From an uncultured archaeon (lineage in GTDB: Archaea > Asgardarchaeota > Hermodarchaeia > Hermodarchaeales > Hermodarchaeaceae), in assembly GCA_964347045.1 (NCBI GenBank), contig CAYFXC010000002.1, positions 96,001-160,000 on the forward strand: 64,000 nt of DNA. Direction: 5' to 3'. The notes below the pieces were generated by a model. It saw only the letters and a program-made list of their open reading frames with translations, did no database searches and was not told the origin of the DNA. Below are positions 14,014 to 21,420 of the stretch, piece after piece. The position numbers and the translations under genes are program-made. Numbering within the stretch: position 1 is the stretch's first letter; each line of letters opens with the position of its first letter.

Positions 14014-14044
14014 AAAAATGTATATAAAAGATAAGAGTAAAGGC

Positions 14045-14124
14045 GGACCATGGGTTGTCTAGGAGTGCACCAGAGGCCCGACCACACCGGTAGTCGAACC
14101 TCAGGTCCCGTCTTCCACCCATCC
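14045..14124 (-). ncRNA. Putative structured 3' RNA element of peptide locus A
   Basis: Minus-strand GAGGUUCGACUAC/GUGGUCGGGCCUC 13-bp stem with G-U pairs and a CGGU loop, plus outer AUGGGU/ACCCAU. Confidence 0.55.
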
Positions 14125-14268
14125 TCAACGAATGATTAGCCCAAGTGCCTGTTCAAGGCGTGGACCTGCGCGGGGATTAGTTCGACAACCAGCAAATAAT
14201 CGCTGTGCATTGGACATGCGAGCGACATTAGCGTAAAGACGAAGTTTCCGACCAATTTGTGTCTGCAT
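14125..14268 (-). CDS. 47-aa basic peptide A (MQTQIGRKLRLYANVARMSNAQRLFAGCRTNPRAGPRLEQALGLIIR), unknown family
   Basis: Hand translation; SD GGAGGT; homologous to peptides at 20483 and 20982. Confidence 0.8.
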   Translation of the reverse strand: MQTQIGRKLRLYANVARMSNAQRLFAGCRTNPRAGPRLEQALGLIIR

Positions 14269-14326
14269 ATTGTGTTTACCTCCAAGATTGTGCTTGGTGA
14301 AAACAGCGTACGCAGAATTAGATATG

Positions 14327-14352
14327 AATCGATGGGAGCTTCACAGTACAAG
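14327..14352 (-). promoter_or_regulatory. Conserved upstream element, copy A (CTTGTAC-N6-GCTCCCATCGATT)
   Basis: Shared with the other two peptide loci; 11-mer ends 60 nt before the ATG. Confidence 0.75.
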
Positions 14353-14949
14353 AACATGCAAAAAACGACGCATTTGCGTGTAATTTTGCACAAGATGGTA
14401 CAAACTTCCGTAAAGGCATCGATAACTAATATGTCTCTGCTTCGGGTAATCCTAACCACAGCTGCCTTCGAAATTCCGCACCCACCTGACGAAATTCGGG
14501 AAGATTGAGAAAAATCATTTTCTTTCGGTGATGAACACTCAGCAAGATTTACGTTAGGATATTATTTCTCCGAAAATAGAAAACCCTGCTAAAGAGTCGC
14601 AAATACTGATGCATCCGGTCAAGGGGGCTATAAAGGTTTACAGTGAAGCCACCGATGGTTTCGGCCCATTGGGCGTCATTGTCGATCTTTCCTTCCGTGA
14701 GATATGCCGGTGAAATGAGTAAAATATCCGCAGGCATAGTTATCGACTACTAGATTCAATAGAATTAGACTAAGTTTTGTAATTTATGGAATAACTGTTT
14801 GCTTGAATAAGCGAGAAAAGTGTTGTCTGCAACTATTAACCAAAAAAGAATTGGAGAGTTGATTTGAGGTTTTGCATCTGCAAAGGAATGCGAACACTTT
14901 TCTATATCCTTAGGTCGATAAGTGGGCGGAGGGATTTGCGATTATGATG

Positions 14950-15135
14950 CTACAATGGCCAACCTGGACTTTTACAGATTGGCCACTTGGTGACATTCCT
15001 ACTATTACACAAGCTATCGTAGTTATTCTCGTTATCGCCATCTTCATTATTGAGATTTACCGGCTCTGGAGATGCGATAATTGGTGTAGAAAGAAGAGAA
15101 GAGCTACTAGCGAATAGCAATTCATCTACAATCAC
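14950..15135 (-). CDS. 61-aa peptide with acidic/Asn-rich middle and C-terminal Cys pair
   Basis: GGGGGGAAGAGGG SD before GTG; divergent from S8 peptidase. Confidence 0.4.
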   Translation of the reverse strand: MIVDELLFASSSSLLSTPIIASPEPVNLNNEDGDNENNYDSLCNSRNVTKWPICKSPGWPL

Positions 15136-15323
15136 AATGCCCTCTTCCCCCCTTTTTTGGAACCCGCAAGCACTTTTGAAACGAAATTCGTTACCATGAA
15201 ACTTTAGTCAGTTATTTTAGAGGGTGAAAATCGTGAATGACACCACGCATAGGCATATATATTAATATTTAATGCCTTTAGGAATTGCTTGTTTAACTCA
15301 CATGGAGTTTGGAAGGGAGTTCA

Positions 15324-17075
15324 ATGCCAGTAAGAAAAAAAGATGAATTTGAAGAACAATTTATGAGTGCCATTGTGACAATCAAATCAAAGAATAAAGA
15401 TAAGTCTCTGTTGAAAAAAGAGACGAAGGATCAAAACTTCGAACAATTTGAACCCAAAGCAGGGAAAATTGACGCTGTAGCGAAATTGCTAGAAGCAAAA
15501 GGGTTTAAGGTCCTAGCAAAAGGCCATTTCAGCATAAGCATTGCAGCATCCATTAGTCATTTTAAGAAAACCCTTGGTGCTGAATTTGAACTGAGAAAGC
15601 AACCGGCATATGGTGCATTTGGGACTCAATTGATGGGAGTTGTTCGCCCAAAAAGTTTCTATATTGCAGCTAAAAGCCCAATCGATCCAAAGCCACTGGG
15701 AAAGGATATCCTTCATATTTCAATCGGAAGACCCTATCCTGTCTTTGGGCTAGTATCTGCTGTACCTCCAAGTCCAGATTATCCTCACCTAAAGATTCCA
15801 AATGATATTCGACGTCTTTTAGGGGTTGAAGGCGTCAGTTATACAGGCAAAGGCGTTCATGTGGTAATGATTGATACTGGATTTTGGCAACCGCGAGTTG
15901 ATGCGATATGCTCGAAACCATTTCATGAATACTATAATGCAAATTTATCTCAAACGGTGCAAAGTCAAATTCGAGTTGAAAAAGTGAAATGGTGGTATGA
16001 TGACCTGCTTGATTTGGGAGGACATGGAACTGCAATGGCATCAGGATTATTTGCGGTGGCACCTGGAATTCAGTTCACAATGGTGAAAGCGGGTGGTCTT
16101 GAATTCGATTGGCCGGGAATGTTTATACACGGAGGCATCTATCTTTATGAAGGCTTTTTAAAAGTGCGAGAACTTGAGCCCGACATCATAGTCTTGTGTA
16201 CAGGCGCGCCAGAAGAGTGGATTATCAATGACCCAGAGCAACAGGCTCTAAAGGAAATGATAGAAGCTGAAATAGTTAGAGAGTTAAATCGGGGAACAGT
16301 TATCGTTGCAGCTACCGGAAATATGGATCAGACAGATGCAAATTTACCAAACCATGCACCGCTATCTTGGCCTTCATCTCATCCTGATGTCATTGCAGTT
16401 GGTGGAGCCTATCCTGAAACACCAGCTTCACCACCGTGGGTGGCTTCTGACGTAGCATCTAGTGGTAATTCAGGAATACATAGTGGACGAACAATTCCTG
16501 ATGTGTGTGGAATTTGTGGACCCACAATAATTGAAGACCGTGGTCAGCAAGGGAGAATTAGATATCCTGCGCCATATATTACAATGCCAACTCAATGGGC
16601 TGCTATCCCAGCTGATTTACACAGCGCTTTAGGTCAAACAGCTTTTGATGCTTGGCTCATTGCCAACGGCACGTCTTGTGCGGCCCCCATGGTCGCTGGT
16701 GTAGTGGCTCTCATGCTAGAAAAGGTAGGAGATAGATCAATTTTCGATCCTACGAGGCTCTCAGCTAAACTAAAAGATTTATTTAGATTGCCTGGGAGCC
16801 AAAGCGGTTGGCATTCTGCTAGCGTTCTCCGACCACGCTTGATAAAGAAGGTGCTAAAGCAAACAGCCATTGACGTTGGGATGGGAATGAGTGCGAATAA
16901 TCATCAAGCAATACCTAATTCCCATGACTTAGCTACTGGAGCAGGTGTTGTGAATGCTACTGCTGCCCTTGCGGCTGTAAATCCTAATGAGGTTAAGACA
17001 ATCATAATGCGAAAAGGGATTTCCATGTCCGATTATGCTGGTCAGCAATTTAAACCAGATTCCTTTTTTCCCTAA
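15324..17075 (+). CDS. Subtilisin-like S8 serine peptidase with N-terminal prodomain
   Basis: Triad VMIDTG / GGHGTAMAS / NGTSCAAPMVAG; oxyanion AATGN; no obvious signal peptide. Confidence 0.9.
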   Translation: MPVRKKDEFEEQFMSAIVTIKSKNKDKSLLKKETKDQNFEQFEPKAGKIDAVAKLLEAKGFKVLAKGHFSISIAASISHFKKTLGAEFELRKQPAYGAFGTQLMGVVRPKSFYIAAKSPIDPKPLGKDILHISIGRPYPVFGLVSAVPPSPDYPHLKIPNDIRRLLGVEGVSYTGKGVHVVMIDTGFWQPRVDAICSKPFHEYYNANLSQTVQSQIRVEKVKWWYDDLLDLGGHGTAMASGLFAVAPGIQFTMVKAGGLEFDWPGMFIHGGIYLYEGFLKVRELEPDIIVLCTGAPEEWIINDPEQQALKEMIEAEIVRELNRGTVIVAATGNMDQTDANLPNHAPLSWPSSHPDVIAVGGAYPETPASPPWVASDVASSGNSGIHSGRTIPDVCGICGPTIIEDRGQQGRIRYPAPYITMPTQWAAIPADLHSALGQTAFDAWLIANGTSCAAPMVAGVVALMLEKVGDRSIFDPTRLSAKLKDLFRLPGSQSGWHSASVLRPRLIKKVLKQTAIDVGMGMSANNHQAIPNSHDLATGAGVVNATAALAAVNPNEVKTIIMRKGISMSDYAGQQFKPDSFFP

Positions 17076-17272
17076 TTCCACCAATTGTAAAAAAGTATCA
17101 TAGTAAAACTTGATTTTACAAAAAAGCGAGTCTATCACATGGAAGGTCTCAATCCTATCAATTAGTTTTGTCTAATCCTCCTTTATGTGGAGGGTTTCTA
17201 ATTTCTAAAAGTGGAAACTGTTGAGTAAACTTGATAATCAGATGAAGCCCATTGATAATTGAGAAGGCGATA

Positions 17273-18244
17273 ATGGATCTCATTGATAAACGTATCATAT
17301 TCGAACTACTGATTAATTACCGTACCTCGTATCAAGCCATCGCAAAAAAACTCGACCTATCTGTTAACGCTGTGAAGAAACGTTTCGAGAAGTTAAAAAG
17401 TGTGGGAATTATCCGTGGAGGTTCTCTGGTACCTTTACCTGTGATGAAAGGAACAGAAGATTGGATGGCAATATTGCGATTAAAAGAGTCTGGTGCCTCC
17501 GATGACCTTCTGGATAGCATTGGATCTCATTTATTAGTTCAATCCGGAAGTATCTTGACAGATGGAAGCATTCTCTGTTTCGGCCATTATAGTGGAGCAC
17601 AGGATCTTCAGGAGATAGGAACATTTCTGCGTCAAGTTAAGGGTGTGACATCAGTTGAATTTCATACAATTCTGAATGCCTTAGGAAAGAAGTGTGACTT
17701 AGATGATTCAGATTTGAAAGTGCTTCGTTGTCTTCGAGAAGAACCACGAATCTCAATAAGCAAAATTACTAGGAAAACAGGTATTACTCCTCGTCGAGTA
17801 AGTCAGATTCTGAAAAAATTGATAGGAGAGAATGGAGCAGAGCCTACTTTCTATGTAAATTGGGAACCACAGGGAGGAACACAACCTGATGAAGTCAGTT
17901 TCTTAATGAGAGTTCATTGGAATCTAAATGCTGGCGGTTATACTGCCTTTATTGTTCAAATTCGTCATAAAGAAGGCATAGAAGAAGGTAAAAGAATTAC
18001 TGATATTCTGACGGCTAATTATCCATTCGAGTTTTGGTATGCATATGCTTCAGCATTTGAGCCCGTGATTTTCTGTATATTCCTCGTTGAACACATTCAT
18101 GATTCGATTGATATCATTAACATGATTAAACAAGTTCCGGAGGCGATTGACGTATATCCAATCTTTGGATATCCAACAAGAGTCTTTCGTAGTCAGGTTG
18201 ATGATTACTTTGAAAGAATCTTCAAACAGCTAGATTTTCCTTGA
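17273..18244 (+). CDS. Tandem Lrp/AsnC-like regulator (2x wHTH-RAM)
   Basis: DLIDKRIIFELLINYRTSYQAIAKKLDLSVNAVKKR; second HTH LDDSDLKVLRCLREEPRISIS. Confidence 0.85.
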   Translation: MDLIDKRIIFELLINYRTSYQAIAKKLDLSVNAVKKRFEKLKSVGIIRGGSLVPLPVMKGTEDWMAILRLKESGASDDLLDSIGSHLLVQSGSILTDGSILCFGHYSGAQDLQEIGTFLRQVKGVTSVEFHTILNALGKKCDLDDSDLKVLRCLREEPRISISKITRKTGITPRRVSQILKKLIGENGAEPTFYVNWEPQGGTQPDEVSFLMRVHWNLNAGGYTAFIVQIRHKEGIEEGKRITDILTANYPFEFWYAYASAFEPVIFCIFLVEHIHDSIDIINMIKQVPEAIDVYPIFGYPTRVFRSQVDDYFERIFKQLDFP

Positions 18245-18452
18245 AGAGTTTTATGAATAATGCTAATTACAATTGAAAATTTCAGACAGGTTTAACACGC
18301 GTACAACATTTGCTTTGTGTTCATATTTTTATGTGACCTTTGTATAGTAGGTGTGGATTCGGACCTTTCATACGCTGCGTGGGTGGTGCGGTGATGGTTT
18401 CACGACTCCATCTACTATCGATGGCAACCTAGAGTATCTAGGCGTGGTAGAT

Positions 18453-19424
18453 ATGGACGAAATTGATAAGAATATTCTTTTTGAGCTTTCTGTTAACTAT
18501 AGGGCTTCTTATCAGACTATGGCTAAAAAGTTGAATCTTTCCGTTAATGCAATCAAGAAACGAGTTCAAAAACTTAAAGATGATGGAGTAATTCGTGGGG
18601 GGGTGTTGATTCCCTCGAATGCTATGTTGGGTATGGAAGATTGGGTCGCACTTTTACGTACCGAAGATCCGATTCCCTCTGACTCTTTCTTAGATAGTCT
18701 GGGAGAGCATGAGTACGTCAATTCTGCAAGCATTTTAACGGATGGAAGCGTTCTCTGCTTCGGGAATTATCCAGGGGCTCAAGGCCTTGAGGAAATTGGA
18801 ATGTATTTGCGAAGGACACCGGGCGTGTTATCCGTGGAGTTTCATACGATTCTAACTGAACAAGGAAAAAAATGTGAGTTATCTTTATCAGAGTTGAAGG
18901 TCCTCCAATGTTTGCGTCAAGAACCACGAATGTCTATTAGTGATTTAGCTGAGAAAACACGTCTTACCCCTCGGCGCATTCGAAAAATTATCCAAAAATT
19001 GCTAGGTGAAAATGGATCTGAACCAGGTTATTATATCGAATGGGAGCCAAGAGGCGGAAGCCGAGCTAGTGAAGTAAGTTTTAGGTTAAACGTACATTGG
19101 GATTTGAATGCCGGAGGGCATACTGCATTCGTTATTATTATCTGCCATGAGGAGGGCGTTGAATCACGGTCCAAGATTGTAAAGGTGCTCAGAGAACAGT
19201 ATCCTGTGAAATTCTGGTACGCGTATGCATCAGCCTTTGAGCCGGTCTTTTTCAGTGTCTTTGTGGTCGAGCACATGCGTGAAGCAAGCCAAATTATTGA
19301 AACGCTGCGACGGACTCCAGAAGTAATCTCAGCTAATGCAATCTATGGGTATCCTACTAAGGCATTTCTAAGCCCAATTGACAAGTATTTTATGCAGCTT
19401 TTCAAAAGGCTTGAAAGTGAATAA
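18453..19424 (+). CDS. Tandem Lrp/AsnC-like regulator, paralog of 17273
   Basis: MDEIDKNILFELSVNYRASYQ; shared ILTDGS, VEFHTIL, HWxLNAGG, FWYAYASAFEPV. Confidence 0.85.
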   Translation: MDEIDKNILFELSVNYRASYQTMAKKLNLSVNAIKKRVQKLKDDGVIRGGVLIPSNAMLGMEDWVALLRTEDPIPSDSFLDSLGEHEYVNSASILTDGSVLCFGNYPGAQGLEEIGMYLRRTPGVLSVEFHTILTEQGKKCELSLSELKVLQCLRQEPRMSISDLAEKTRLTPRRIRKIIQKLLGENGSEPGYYIEWEPRGGSRASEVSFRLNVHWDLNAGGHTAFVIIICHEEGVESRSKIVKVLREQYPVKFWYAYASAFEPVFFSVFVVEHMREASQIIETLRRTPEVISANAIYGYPTKAFLSPIDKYFMQLFKRLESE

Positions 19425-19450
19425 TTAACCTTTGACACCCACCAATCTGT

Positions 19451-20206
19451 TTAATGATGTTTTGATTTGCGGTAGCACCCATAACCAAATGCACTCCCGA
19501 GAACAAATGGAACCAGAAGCAAAATTGTTAATCCTATGGTTTGGAGGACTTGTTGGGATTGTTCTTCTACGGAGAAAATTCCAAGGCGTCCGAGATTGTT
19601 GGTCGTGAGTTCCCTTGTGAATTTGTAGGTATAGATAGCATGTTGAGATGCTAAGAGTTCACTGGTATGCTTGATAAGGATACCCTGGGAGTGGTGGAAG
19701 TGCCAGATTTCTCTGGAGAGTTGGTAATCGTCGTCAATTGAGAGCCAGGCAACTGAACTGGCCAGCCAACAGAGATAAGTGCCTGAAGATACGTGAGTGT
19801 ACTCAGATGAGAGGTGAAACTCACCAGAGTAGGTTGGCACTTGGATTGTATCTCCAAGATGCCATAATGAGGTGTCAACCCATAAAGGAGGTTGGAGTAC
19901 CTGATCTGTTGCAGAGCCATTGCTCAATAAAATATTCCATGTGGAGATATCGACAGAGAGTAACTGGTGTGTTGAATACTCTTCAGTGGATGAGAAATTT
20001 ACAATAAGAACGGATTCGCCAAGTTCAGGAGCCCATCGAATGATTTCGTAGCGTTCATTCCATGCATTAAAGGCATCATCAGTGATGTGATAGGTAAGTA
20101 TGAGGTCAACGGGAAAGGGCGTAGAAGCTGATTTTACGGGAAAGAAAAAACACGGGAGAATAGGAAGGCATAGAAACAAGATTATTGTTTTGCATTGACT
20201 TTTCAT
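19451..20206 (-). CDS. Secreted/membrane-anchored protein (signal peptide plus C-terminal TM)
   Basis: MKSQCKTIILFLCLP N-terminal hydrophobic stretch; C-terminal TM plus basic tail; start uncertain. Confidence 0.7.
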   Translation of the reverse strand: MKSQCKTIILFLCLPILPCFFFPVKSASTPFPVDLILTYHITDDAFNAWNERYEIIRWAPELGESVLIVNFSSTEEYSTHQLLSVDISTWNILLSNGSATDQVLQPPLWVDTSLWHLGDTIQVPTYSGEFHLSSEYTHVSSGTYLCWLASSVAWLSIDDDYQLSREIWHFHHSQGILIKHTSELLASQHAIYTYKFTRELTTNNLGRLGIFSVEEQSQQVLQTIGLTILLLVPFVLGSAFGYGCYRKSKHH

Positions 20207-20284
20207 CGTGAAGCCATTGGTTGTGTGGAATTGAAGCCCAAATAGCTTATCCTTTGAAGAAAAATGCCATTTCTTCAAAAAACC

Positions 20285-20482
20285 AAAAAAAATCCGCCGG
20301 GTCTTCATCGTTCCTTCCCCTCCATTTTGGCACTTCCCGGTCCAAGTTTGTATGGGTGGCATTGGACCTTTTTGGACAACGGATCCGGAGTTGTTGTCCG
20401 GTTACCGTGAAGACCCGGCGTCAGTCAGCGTCCAAGGTCCGCGTCCCTGGTGTTGCAATGTCAATACCTGTTGTAAGCGTGA
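20285..20482 (-). ncRNA. Putative multibranch 3' RNA element of peptide locus D, ending in U8
   Basis: Perfect 13-bp IR 20295-20307/20408-20420 enclosing two 7-bp hairpins (20339-45/20362-68; 20374-80/20393-99); A8 at 20285-20292. Confidence 0.65.
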
Positions 20483-20626
20483 TTAGCGTCGTGAAGTGAC
20501 GATGGCGAAGTTGATTCGATCGCGGGGGGTGCCTTTGGGGTTCTTTGCACCTGTCACAGCGCGTTCTGTGACCGGCATTTTGGGAATGATATTTTTCTTG
20601 TGTCCGGTTTCTTTCTTATTGGTCAT
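20483..20626 (-). CDS. 47-aa basic peptide D (MTNKKETGHKKNIIPKMPVTERAVTGAKNPKGTPRDRINFAIVTSRR)
   Basis: Hand translation; SD GGAAGGTGA; homologous to peptides A and B. Confidence 0.82.
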   Translation of the reverse strand: MTNKKETGHKKNIIPKMPVTERAVTGAKNPKGTPRDRINFAIVTSRR

Positions 20627-20684
20627 TTTCTATCACCTTCCTGACGATGCAGGTCAAGTGTGTATAACCCTTAGATTGCCTATT

Positions 20685-20710
20685 ATTCGATGGGAGCTTG
20701 TCGGTGCAAA
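20685..20710 (-). promoter_or_regulatory. Conserved upstream element, copy D (TTTGCAC-N6-GCTCCCATCGAAT)
   Basis: 11-mer at 20687-20697, 60 nt before the ATG, same spacing as locus A. Confidence 0.75.
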
Positions 20711-20801
20711 AATCCGACAAAATAATGAGAGTTGAACCATCTTTTGCACTAGTTAGTGCAAAATTTAGATTGGTAACGGTTTTAGTTCGAGAAGGGGGTA
20801 A

Positions 20802-20981
20802 ACCGGGTCCGCAGAAGCTCCAGGCCAAAGGAGTCAGAAGGGTAGTAGGTCCGTTGCCGGATCGCTGCTACGCCGATCACCCGACAACGGATGGAGGCGA
20901 TTGGTGCTTGTGCAGACCCGAGATATTAGGCTGAGAGGAGGACCGGATGGCTTTGTAGTCACCATGGGGATTCCTCACAGT
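20802..20981 (-). ncRNA. Putative structured 3' RNA element of peptide locus B
   Basis: Closing stem CGGGUCUGCA/UGCGGACCCG (20911-20/20804-13) and inner UCCGUUGUCGG/CCGGCAACGGA (20881-91/20850-60), G-U pairs on the minus strand. Confidence 0.6.
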
Positions 20982-21122
20982 CTAGCGTCGACTAAGGACC
21001 AGCATAACTGCGTACCGAGTGCGTGGTTTTGCAATCGGATGGGGGTTGCGGCAGCCAGCGATAGCTCGTTCAGAAGCCGACATTTCAGCGATTTTCTTGT
21101 GTTTATACTTGGATTTGGCCAT
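20982..21122 (-). CDS. 46-aa basic peptide B (MAKSKYKHKKIAEMSASERAIAGCRNPHPIAKPRTRYAVMLVLSRR)
   Basis: Internal ATG of track ORF 20982-21284 with SD GGAGGG; homologous to A and D. Confidence 0.82.
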   Translation of the reverse strand: MAKSKYKHKKIAEMSASERAIAGCRNPHPIAKPRTRYAVMLVLSRR

Positions 21123-21206
21123 TCTCAAATCCCTCCAATTGTGTTGTCTCCGGGATTCCCGGGGAGAAACCCCGTTGCATGTGAAAGAAGGCGGCCGTTT
21201 GATAAG

Positions 21207-21232
21207 AATCGATGGGAGCCAAGAAGTGCAAA
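21207..21232 (-). promoter_or_regulatory. Conserved upstream element, copy B (TTTGCAC-N6-GCTCCCATCGATT)
   Basis: 11-mer at 21209-21219, 86 nt before the ATG; extra length matches a leader hairpin. Confidence 0.75.
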
Positions 21233-21420
21233 TCTTCTCGAAAGAAACCTGTGAAAGATAGTTTTTTTGAACCACATTATGCAAAATTTAGCTTTAAATT
21301 AGGAAGTTTTCCGTTTGGGTTGATTTTCACTATCAGAGTTTGTGAATAAGTTTTCTTAAGATTTTTTTGGGGTGTTCTGCGAAGGCTTTTGTGAACTCGG
21401 TTATAGTGTAACCTGGTGAG

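Follow-up and report, generated by a model that had tools for sequence, protein, structure and literature searches.

A Hermodarchaeia-specific family of basic microproteins and a structured RNA family with a predicted protease mRNA target

Do three very short open reading frames in the genome of an uncultured Hermodarchaeia archaeon encode real proteins, and does each belong, as an earlier note on this DNA proposed, to a unit of promoter, peptide and structured RNA? We examined them within a window of 64,000 nucleotides, the whole stretch of DNA analyzed here. All three ORFs, called A, B and D, are present, their translations match those quoted in the earlier note exactly, and the claimed Shine-Dalgarno (SD) sites were located upstream of each; the strand, which that note left unstated, is minus in every case (Table 1). 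B is indeed hidden in a longer reading frame, a TTG-started ORF of 100 aa (20982-21284), and B and D form tandem units of ~500 bp. Outside the window, the source genome encodes four more intact family members and one pseudogene.

Table 1. Positions of the microprotein genes, their control elements, RNAs and neighbors in the window
Feature	Position	Strand	Remark
A 3' hairpin and pyrimidine tract	14026..14124	-	z -2.0; not B/D RNA family
Microprotein A, 47 aa, net charge +8	14125..14268	-	orthologues in 2 other genomes
Shine-Dalgarno of A	14277..14285	-	
Shared 32-nt promoter element of A	14322..14353	-	PWM score 41 vs best shuffled 15.6
Neighboring S8 protease gene	15309..17075	+	Pfam PF00082
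Tandem AsnC-type HTH regulator	17252..18244	+	
Second tandem AsnC-type HTH regulator	18351..19424	+	57% identical to first
D-type structured 3' RNA	20285..20422	-	closing stem, conserved interior, U tract
11-nt seed of D RNA	20374..20384	-	perfect complement of C9 S8 protease SD region
Microprotein D, 47 aa, net charge +9	20483..20626	-	10 copies, dN/dS 0.16
Shine-Dalgarno of D	20633..20643	-	
Shared promoter element of D	20680..20711	-	PWM score 43
22-bp palindrome upstream of D	20742..20763	.	probable operator
B-type structured 3' RNA	20802..20922	-	covarying closing stem and inner helix
13-nt seed of B RNA	20883..20895	-	complementary to same C9 protease SD region
Microprotein B, 46 aa, net charge +10	20982..21122	-	10 copies, dN/dS 0.13
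Shine-Dalgarno of B	21130..21138	-	
Shared promoter element of B	21202..21233	-	PWM score 39

A, B and D are members of an undescribed family of basic microproteins of 38-57 aa. The family occurs in 17 of 18 other Hermodarchaeia genomes, with 2-8 matches apiece, and no member was found in 381 other (non-Hermodarchaeia) Asgard genomes; it is a Hermodarchaeia-specific family of stand-alone small genes. Weak matches in other Asgard families (E>0.005) lay in long ORFs or were stop-broken or partial and were discarded, matches labeled 'Thorarchaeota' or 'Hodarchaeota' at NCBI apparently come from MAGs that GTDB places in the source genus, as judged by sequence match, and three long library matches proved to be repeat-protein artefacts. 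The earlier note recognized no family, and the peptides match nothing in Pfam, NCBIfam or the PDB sequences; PHROGs returned a single weak, unnamed match (E 0.0085) covering 2 of 33 members, the ESM Atlas gave no usable match, and viral contigs held no relative. Because orthologues of each of A, B and D exist elsewhere and are under purifying selection, these ORFs go beyond chance. The selection on the peptide that had been surmised is evident, with dN/dS of 0.13-0.16 for B, D and the subfamilies E, F and H, and 0.40 for A, whose orthologues have pN<pS in every pair. With a conserved frame, an SD and purifying selection all present, comparison of the coding sequences shows A, B and D to be protein-coding and under purifying selection. 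Of the motif drawn from the three peptides, R, G, N and P are invariant family-wide, whereas 'PR' is not general; E and the penultimate R are kept in at least 90% of members. The peptides have a basic N-terminus, a helix, a GxRNP turn and a C-terminal helix with an Arg-Arg end, and their predicted structure comprises three helices (pLDDT 68; best fold match Z <=3.1).

The family genes sit at fixed chromosomal loci with conserved synteny, and these loci are stable and inherited vertically; a mobile element was rejected on account of this fixed synteny, and a role as attenuator or leader peptide is not general, since the downstream genes differ in identity and orientation. HTH regulators flank the A/B/D cluster, as do proteases of the S8 and C25 (gingipain-type) kinds, and the neighboring S8 protease, which is distinct from the predicted antisense target on contig C9 discussed below, adjoins the peptide cluster in several genomes. 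The upstream element said to be common to A, B and D is a real and specific 32-nt promoter element, composed of a TTGCAC half-site, N6, GCTCCCATCGA and a weak TATA. Across 12 genomes it has 35 sites against 1 in the control, each before a small gene, and it also precedes two other small genes; usually it lies near tandem-HTH regulators, and HTH genes are close by at several separate loci. These searches show the A/B/D promoter to be rare and non-canonical. Co-regulation does not extend to the whole family, as the promoters of subfamilies F/G and H are of the canonical TATA kind. The palindrome TTTTGCAC-N6-GTGCAAAA has a single perfect copy in the genome and recurs upstream of D in relatives, and linkage makes the first HTH regulator of the window a candidate activator of the shared promoter.

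The folded 3' region attributed to all three genes is strong at B (z -4.1) and D (z -3.1) and weak at A (z -2.0), where it is unrelated to the B/D RNA, lacks the common closing stem and the seed, and is probably a terminator. B and D are each followed by a covarying RNA of ~120 nt. In the B RNA, 10 pairs show two-sided change, 93% of cells are paired and 0 of 500 shuffles equal this; the D RNA has a closing stem of 12-13 bp, in which 20408-20417 pairs with 20298-20307. A model of the F RNA cross-detects the D, B and K RNAs, and G-U pairs and U tracts point to sense-strand RNA. An Rfam covariance-model search gave one match only (E 0.15), outside the RNA elements, and gave no backing to a suspected likeness to the B12 box, twister, pistol or Y RNA; a metagenome and virus scan with the RNA pattern yielded chance matches only, with no family peptide alongside. 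A fold-back between the 5' and 3' parts of B in the source genome is not conserved in relatives. An SD-led ATG within the D RNA is likewise found in the source genome only. One peptide-RNA cassette does not serve for all: A, subfamilies E and H, and the majority of copies in the sister genus are followed by different 3' structures. Since the RNA family also trails non-peptide genes, namely a beta-lactamase-family gene (the K RNA) or a regulator, it is not a private partner of the peptide.

What might these RNAs act on? The predicted loop seed, UCCGUUGUCC, has its complement in the SD region of an mRNA that encodes a secreted S8 protease of 1668 aa. Across five genomes, the 11-mer seed has 24 matches, against 0 for a reversed control; in the source genome, the seed complement is confined to three RNA loci and the protease SD, and the bipartite complement to K and the protease. 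When 2256 translation-start regions were ranked, the protease came first for K, second for F and for B (self excluded) and fourth for D. In pairing energy, only K (-35.6) does better than shuffled sequences (-24 to -30 over six shuffles); B, D and F do not. The target site is conserved in 9/9 same-genus protease orthologues, its 24 nt having only two variable positions in proteins as low as 35-42% identical, and K presents a G opposite the common C/T variant. The site is missing from the sister-genus orthologues and from a paralogue of the protease, and the sister genus also lacks the seed; the seed is degenerate or absent in three genomes with no detected protease, and is kept in three others (72-86% complete) in which the protease was not found. 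We saw no compensatory seed/target change, because the seed-facing target bases never vary, only wobble-compatible changes and one presence/absence contrast; the target site could instead be conserved for cis reasons (hairpin, SD or operator). In D, F and K the seed lies open (2-6 kcal/mol), and it is accessible, conserved and complementary to the target's translation-initiation region. The case is weaker for B, whose seed usually forms a covarying pairing in cis and, in several genomes, contains mismatches. The option of a dual-function RNA, raised in the earlier note, thereby gains a specific candidate target in trans for the seed-bearing RNAs, and it does not extend to A, which has no seed. 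The seed also complements a 16S segment, for which chance expectation is ~20% by arithmetic, and pairing with 16S was rejected.

We propose that B and D are conditionally expressed dual-function transcripts, each specifying a nucleic-acid-binding peptide and an antisense RNA, a reading of the sequences to which we give a probability of about 0.35. In this model, the neighboring tandem-HTH regulator would bind the TTTTGCAC site and turn on a small-protein regulon in a particular state, under stress or in slowed growth, and the B and D transcripts would then play two roles. The peptide would be a cytoplasmic protein that acts on nucleic acid, with RNA or ribosomes as its most likely partner, a binding activity that we infer from its charge and by analogy. 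The loop seed of the 3' RNA would pair in trans with the SD of the S8 protease mRNA and block its translation, and the closing stem and U tract would also terminate and protect the transcript. In the related RNAs F (after peptide genes) and K, a second pairing segment may open the target's 5' hairpin. Our wider suggestion, which is tentative, is a lineage programme in which a tandem-HTH activator drives nucleic-acid-binding microproteins whose mRNA tails, together with homologous tails, silence one secreted protease.

SgrS/SgrT and RNAIII are dual-function sRNAs, as are Bacillus subtilis SR1/SR1P (PMC8501984) and SR7/SR7P (PMC7834092). Like the two Bacillus RNAs, B and D would join, on a short transcript, a protein of ~40 aa and a separate region predicted to pair with the translation initiation region of another mRNA. 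Unlike them, they occur in an archaeal host, show no detected sequence similarity, belong to a multi-copy family with several RNAs predicted against one target, and place the seed in the loop of a long closing stem. The spRNAs of Methanosarcina mazei, with the small proteins sP23 and sP24, are likewise archaeal small-protein genes on small RNAs and are expressed under specific conditions (10.1101/2025.10.28.685009). Those spRNAs have cis antisense RNAs as pairing partners, and one of the proteins, sP24, is a membrane protein (10.1101/2025.10.28.685009), whereas our peptides lack a transmembrane segment and the target predicted here lies in trans.

Against the dual-function reading of B and D stands a rival that we rate almost as probable, under which the peptides would be abundant dormancy proteins, SASP-like or binding ribosomes or chromatin, the 3' RNA would do no more than terminate and stabilize the transcript, and the motif would be recognized by a host RNA- or DNA-binding protein. 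The alpha/beta small acid-soluble spore proteins of Bacillus and Clostridium are small, helical, multi-copy proteins from scattered monocistronic genes with a special promoter and proteases nearby, all of which holds for the present family as well. There is, however, no HMM or structure match to them, our peptides are much more basic, and this archaeal group is not known to sporulate. The simple hairpins that are all that H and most sister-genus members carry on their 3' side would suit such proteins, and a double-stranded DNA site would explain why the motif occurs at the RNAs, the protease leader and transposon ends in either orientation, yet it would leave unexplained both the second segment of K and F that matches the target hairpin and the wobble-compatible C-to-U variation of the seed, and the G-U pairs and U tracts indicate RNA of the sense strand. 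We think it unlikely that the peptide instead binds its own 3' RNA, in the manner of arginine-rich-motif pairs such as lambda N-boxB and Tat-TAR, to form a small RNP or autoregulatory loop. Arg and Lys make up 24.5% of residues, and in B, D, F and G the closing stem begins at a similar distance, 52-68 nt, past the final stop codon, but the K RNA and a second D-type RNA have no peptide of their own, and the core motif persists in the peptides of A, E, H and the sister genus, whose 3' structures differ.

The proteases and HTH regulators around A, B and D could also suggest protease-processed signals, RiPP-like precursors or protease inhibitors, with the hydrophobic-Arg-Arg C-terminus as recognition signal; the F locus also encodes a peptide of 26-27 aa that has nothing in common with the family but this C-terminus (C-terminal dN/dS 0.35). 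This is improbable: the peptides have no signal peptide, no conserved modifying enzyme or exporter is adjacent (the neighbors being regulators, proteases and housekeeping genes), the E, F and H loci lack S8/C25 proteases, and conservation covers the whole core, not a leader alone. Local transposons offer a further source for the RNAs, either as derivatives or as antisense inhibitors of a TnpB guide-RNA scaffold, since four TnpB elements adjoin peptide genes and the commonest local TnpB right end, TTTGGACAACGG, is exactly reverse-complementary to the D seed region over 12 nt. With 9-12 nt of complementarity to the right end of the element, the RNAs also recall the omega-RNA of IS607/IS605-type TnpB. 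Yet profile-level homology is missing in nhmmer and covariance-model searches in both directions, the strand is opposite, no nuclease is linked, no intact TnpB of matching type was found in the source genome, and the sister genus has many such elements and no seed RNAs, so that we hold this origin to be very unlikely. Least compatible with the data are the toxin/antitoxin-like units that the earlier note entertained, in which a toxic peptide on a translationally locked mRNA would be held by an antisense antitoxin. The type I toxins Helicobacter AapA, Ldr and PepA1 are, like our peptides, short, cationic and encoded in several chromosomal copies on structured mRNAs, with a hydrophobic and Arg/Lys end, and the tandem arrangement of B and D would fit. 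But the best Kyte-Doolittle 19-mer is <=0.38 over 63 peptides, leaving no membrane helix and a membrane-toxin reading unsupported; SD opening medians of 4-8 kcal/mol lie within the range of control genes (6.8-7.4), some D copies exceeding the 95th percentile; 5'-3' pairing is not conserved; and the loci are stably inherited. We consider such a system highly improbable.

Asgard archaea are the closest prokaryotic relatives of eukaryotes, and very little is charted of their small proteins or of the RNAs that regulate by base-pairing. Three things here are firm: an undescribed, conserved microprotein family; a specific, non-canonical class of archaeal promoter, for which there is a candidate regulator; and a family of structured RNAs absent from Rfam. 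The predicted seed-target pair is precise enough to be tested in vitro with short synthetic RNAs, with no need for culture. If the dual-function reading is true, a single transcript would encode a peptide and also silence a second gene, a small-protein regulon would be tied to the control of extracellular proteolysis in a sediment heterotroph, and Asgard archaea would possess a base-pairing sRNA network and a dual-function RNA family that are, as far as our searches reach, undescribed.

The A, B and D genes belong to a microprotein family that is real, undescribed and restricted to its lineage; it comes with a promoter class of its own and with a family of RNAs that is unlisted. All three translate exactly as quoted in the earlier note, which proposed them as peptide-plus-RNA cassettes, and each has the good Shine-Dalgarno (SD) sequence claimed for it; the 100-aa ORF enclosing B is, as supposed, judged spurious. 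The same genome carries an extra D-like member on contig C13, an E-type member on C22, F-type and divergent H-type members on C5 (E to H being further subfamilies), and a pseudogene. The second small gene at the F locus resembles the family in its hydrophobic-Arg-Arg end only, and selection on it is weaker, with a dN/dS of 0.56 overall and 0.35 in the C-terminal half. In a profile search of the kind suggested in the earlier note, 33 peptide sequences recover members in 17 of the 18 other genomes of the host's family; the 381 other Asgard genomes yield a single weak, stop-containing match. When the profile is broadened to take in H, the count per genome is 2-8, and again no match outside that family is credible. 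A search of 1.84 billion representative proteins yields 20 real matches, every one a small protein, three further matches being repeat artefacts; named matches are annotated 'hypothetical protein'. The earlier note recognised no family, and likewise the peptides have no match in Pfam, NCBIfam, PDB or Atlas, nor did we find them described in the literature.

Locations of the features discussed (C, contigs of the window's genome; L, loci)
Feature	Location	Details
Gene A	window 14125-14268 (-)	
Gene after D	window 19451-20362 (-)	
Gene D	window 20483-20626 (-)	
Gene B	window 20982-21122 (-)	
Family pseudogene	C6:44748-44882 (L090)	three in-frame stops; SD and decayed 3' element still present
Second small gene, F locus	C5:123334-123414 (L091:4235-4312)	26-27-aa peptide
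H, divergent member at F locus	C5:123993-124139 (L091:4894-5037)	48 aa; own TATA, TTAAC-x-GTGTTAAC palindrome, simple terminator
Two other promoter-regulon genes	C13:31542 (-), 32705 (+) (L285)	flank tandem-HTH gene
Two hydrophobic ORFs	L277:1767-2129	
K-type RNA	C23:11787-11918 (L213; L204-L214)	
S8 protease 5' UTR site	C9:83381-83411	
Seed-bearing stem-loop	C30:12900-12990 (L287)	
TnpB elements, right end = reverse complement of D seed	L060, L073, L087, L088; L247-L276	

The peptides are 38-57 aa long with a net charge of +5 to +12, and share a core, ERAxxGCRNP, whose R, G, N and P are invariant across members; most end in hydrophobic residues and S-R-R. They are genes under coding selection, as the earlier note had argued: pooled dN/dS is 0.13 for B and E, 0.16 for D, F and H, and 0.40 for A (three sequences), and pN is below pS for every pair within A, B, D, E and F. 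Because every subfamily stays at a chromosomal site of its own, we rule out mobile units. An AlphaFold model predicts three short helices (pLDDT 68) and gave no informative match in a fold search. The peptides do not qualify as type I toxins (no membrane segment was found), as SASPs by sequence or as RiPP precursors. The SecM-type arrest motif RAGP occurs in peptide A and its orthologues, at 11 residues from the C-terminus, and is missing from the other subfamilies.

The upstream element proposed as common to A, B and D is confirmed as a 32-mer of constant spacing, in which a TTGCAC half-site is followed by six free bases, then GCTCCCATCGA and a weak TATA. With a matrix built without the window's genome, five sites in that genome score 26-43, shuffled sequence reaching 15.6 at most, and the host's family holds 35 sites versus 1 control, all within the host's genus. 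The element is common to A, B, D, their relatives and two other small-protein genes, whose products (80 aa with a signal-like N-terminus, and 86-88 aa) have no Pfam match. Since F/G and H genes use canonical TATA promoters, the co-regulation claimed earlier stands for A, B and D and not for the whole family. Tandem AsnC-type HTH genes adjoin the promoter repeatedly, at several loci, a linkage that makes their products candidate activators. On one metagenome contig retaining the 32-mer, a family member and an HTH gene have two unannotated 56-aa hydrophobic ORFs between them.

About 60 nt beyond the stops of B and D lies a ~120-nt element with a 12-13-bp closing stem, then a pyrimidine or U tract. 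The folded 3' regions proposed for all three genes hold for B and D (z-scores -4.1 and -3.1), A having just a weaker hairpin. In the B RNA, two-sided changes at 10 of 34 pairs, a count that related sequences may inflate, are more than in any of 500 shuffles or any slid control; the G-U pairs of the closing stems point to the sense strand. The elements have no Rfam match. An F-type RNA model also detects the D RNA, weakly the B RNA, and a highly conserved K-type RNA in 11 genomes, which follows either a gene for a secreted protein of the beta-lactamase family or an HTH gene. Because K lacks a peptide and a D-type RNA can be present where no D gene is, the RNA family is independent of any single peptide. 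The K interior suggests several pseudoknots. In F-type RNAs (L039-L092), part of the spacer that precedes the closing stem is able to pair with bases inside the loop; compensatory changes apparent by eye make a pseudoknot possible, which an automated helix scan did not confirm. The gene after D, in which translation probably begins well downstream of the ATG listed, encodes a product with a signal-like N-terminus, a C-terminal helix and no Pfam match; homologues recur close to the B/D cluster.

The B, D, F and K RNAs share a loop seed, UCCGUUGUC(C/U), enriched as an 11-mer (24 versus 0 control, five genomes). One additional seed site, found repeatedly, corresponds in reverse complement to the 5' UTR of a secreted S8 protease of 1668 aa; in that UTR a short hairpin precedes ACAAC and an SD-like GGAUGG. 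Predicted pairing over this SD spans 11 nt for D and 13 nt for the window genome's B, and an extra CAGUAGG segment in K and F pairs with the 5' arm of the hairpin. The window's genome has the 11-nt complement at three RNA loci, at the protease UTR and nowhere else; the calculated probability that a perfect 11-mer falls within ~20 nt of one or other of 2256 starts is ~0.01, before correction for SD bias. The protease ranks 1 for K, 2 for F and B, and 4 for D among these starts, and against shuffled queries the energy is better for K alone, not for F, B or D. The 24-nt site has only two variable positions in 9/9 same-genus orthologues, the spacer before it varying freely; two sister-genus orthologues and one paralogue lack it, and no seed RNAs were found in the sister genus. 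Three genomes without a detected protease have a degenerate or missing seed; three others, where the protease was not found, retain it. We found no seed-target compensatory change, and in the B RNA the seed mostly pairs in cis. Antisense action on the protease mRNA is predicted at a little short of even odds.

The shared motif may instead be a protein-binding site, since its complement recurs elsewhere: local TnpB elements most often have a right end that is the reverse complement, over 12 nt, of the seed region in D, four such elements lie near peptide genes, and a 16S segment also pairs with the seed, at chance level. An omega-RNA identity was rejected, profile tests of the RNAs against TnpB giving no wider homology. 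One TnpB element is inserted in the 3' region of an E-type gene; the TnpB scaffold holds CCC(A/G)TCGAT, which is also the core of the peptide promoter, probably a coincidence. The 16S and 23S genes of a relative (G008; L095, L096) contain several inserts, hundreds of bases long and in some cases ORF-bearing, that look like rRNA introns. K's second-best predicted target, in the window's genome only, is the 5' region of its own-locus HTH gene (-33.1 kcal/mol). The C30 stem-loop, short and followed by a U tract, has the same seed in its loop and sits 3' of a secreted protein gene, between tandem-HTH genes.

Returning to antisense action, the proposed way of working resembles that of the peptide-plus-RNA transcripts SR1/SR1P of Bacillus (PMC8501984), to which a sequence relation is undetectable. 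The charge and size of the peptides and their lack of a membrane segment point tentatively, at somewhat longer odds than the antisense prediction, to nucleic-acid binding. The analysis shows selection on the coding frames, one specific class of promoter, covariation in the RNA, and conservation of a site at the protease SD that is complementary to the seed. Beyond this we propose a joint reading, with a probability of roughly 0.35, in which the HTH proteins would activate the promoter of the A, B and D genes, the peptides would bind nucleic acid, and the 3' RNA would repress the S8 protease in trans.
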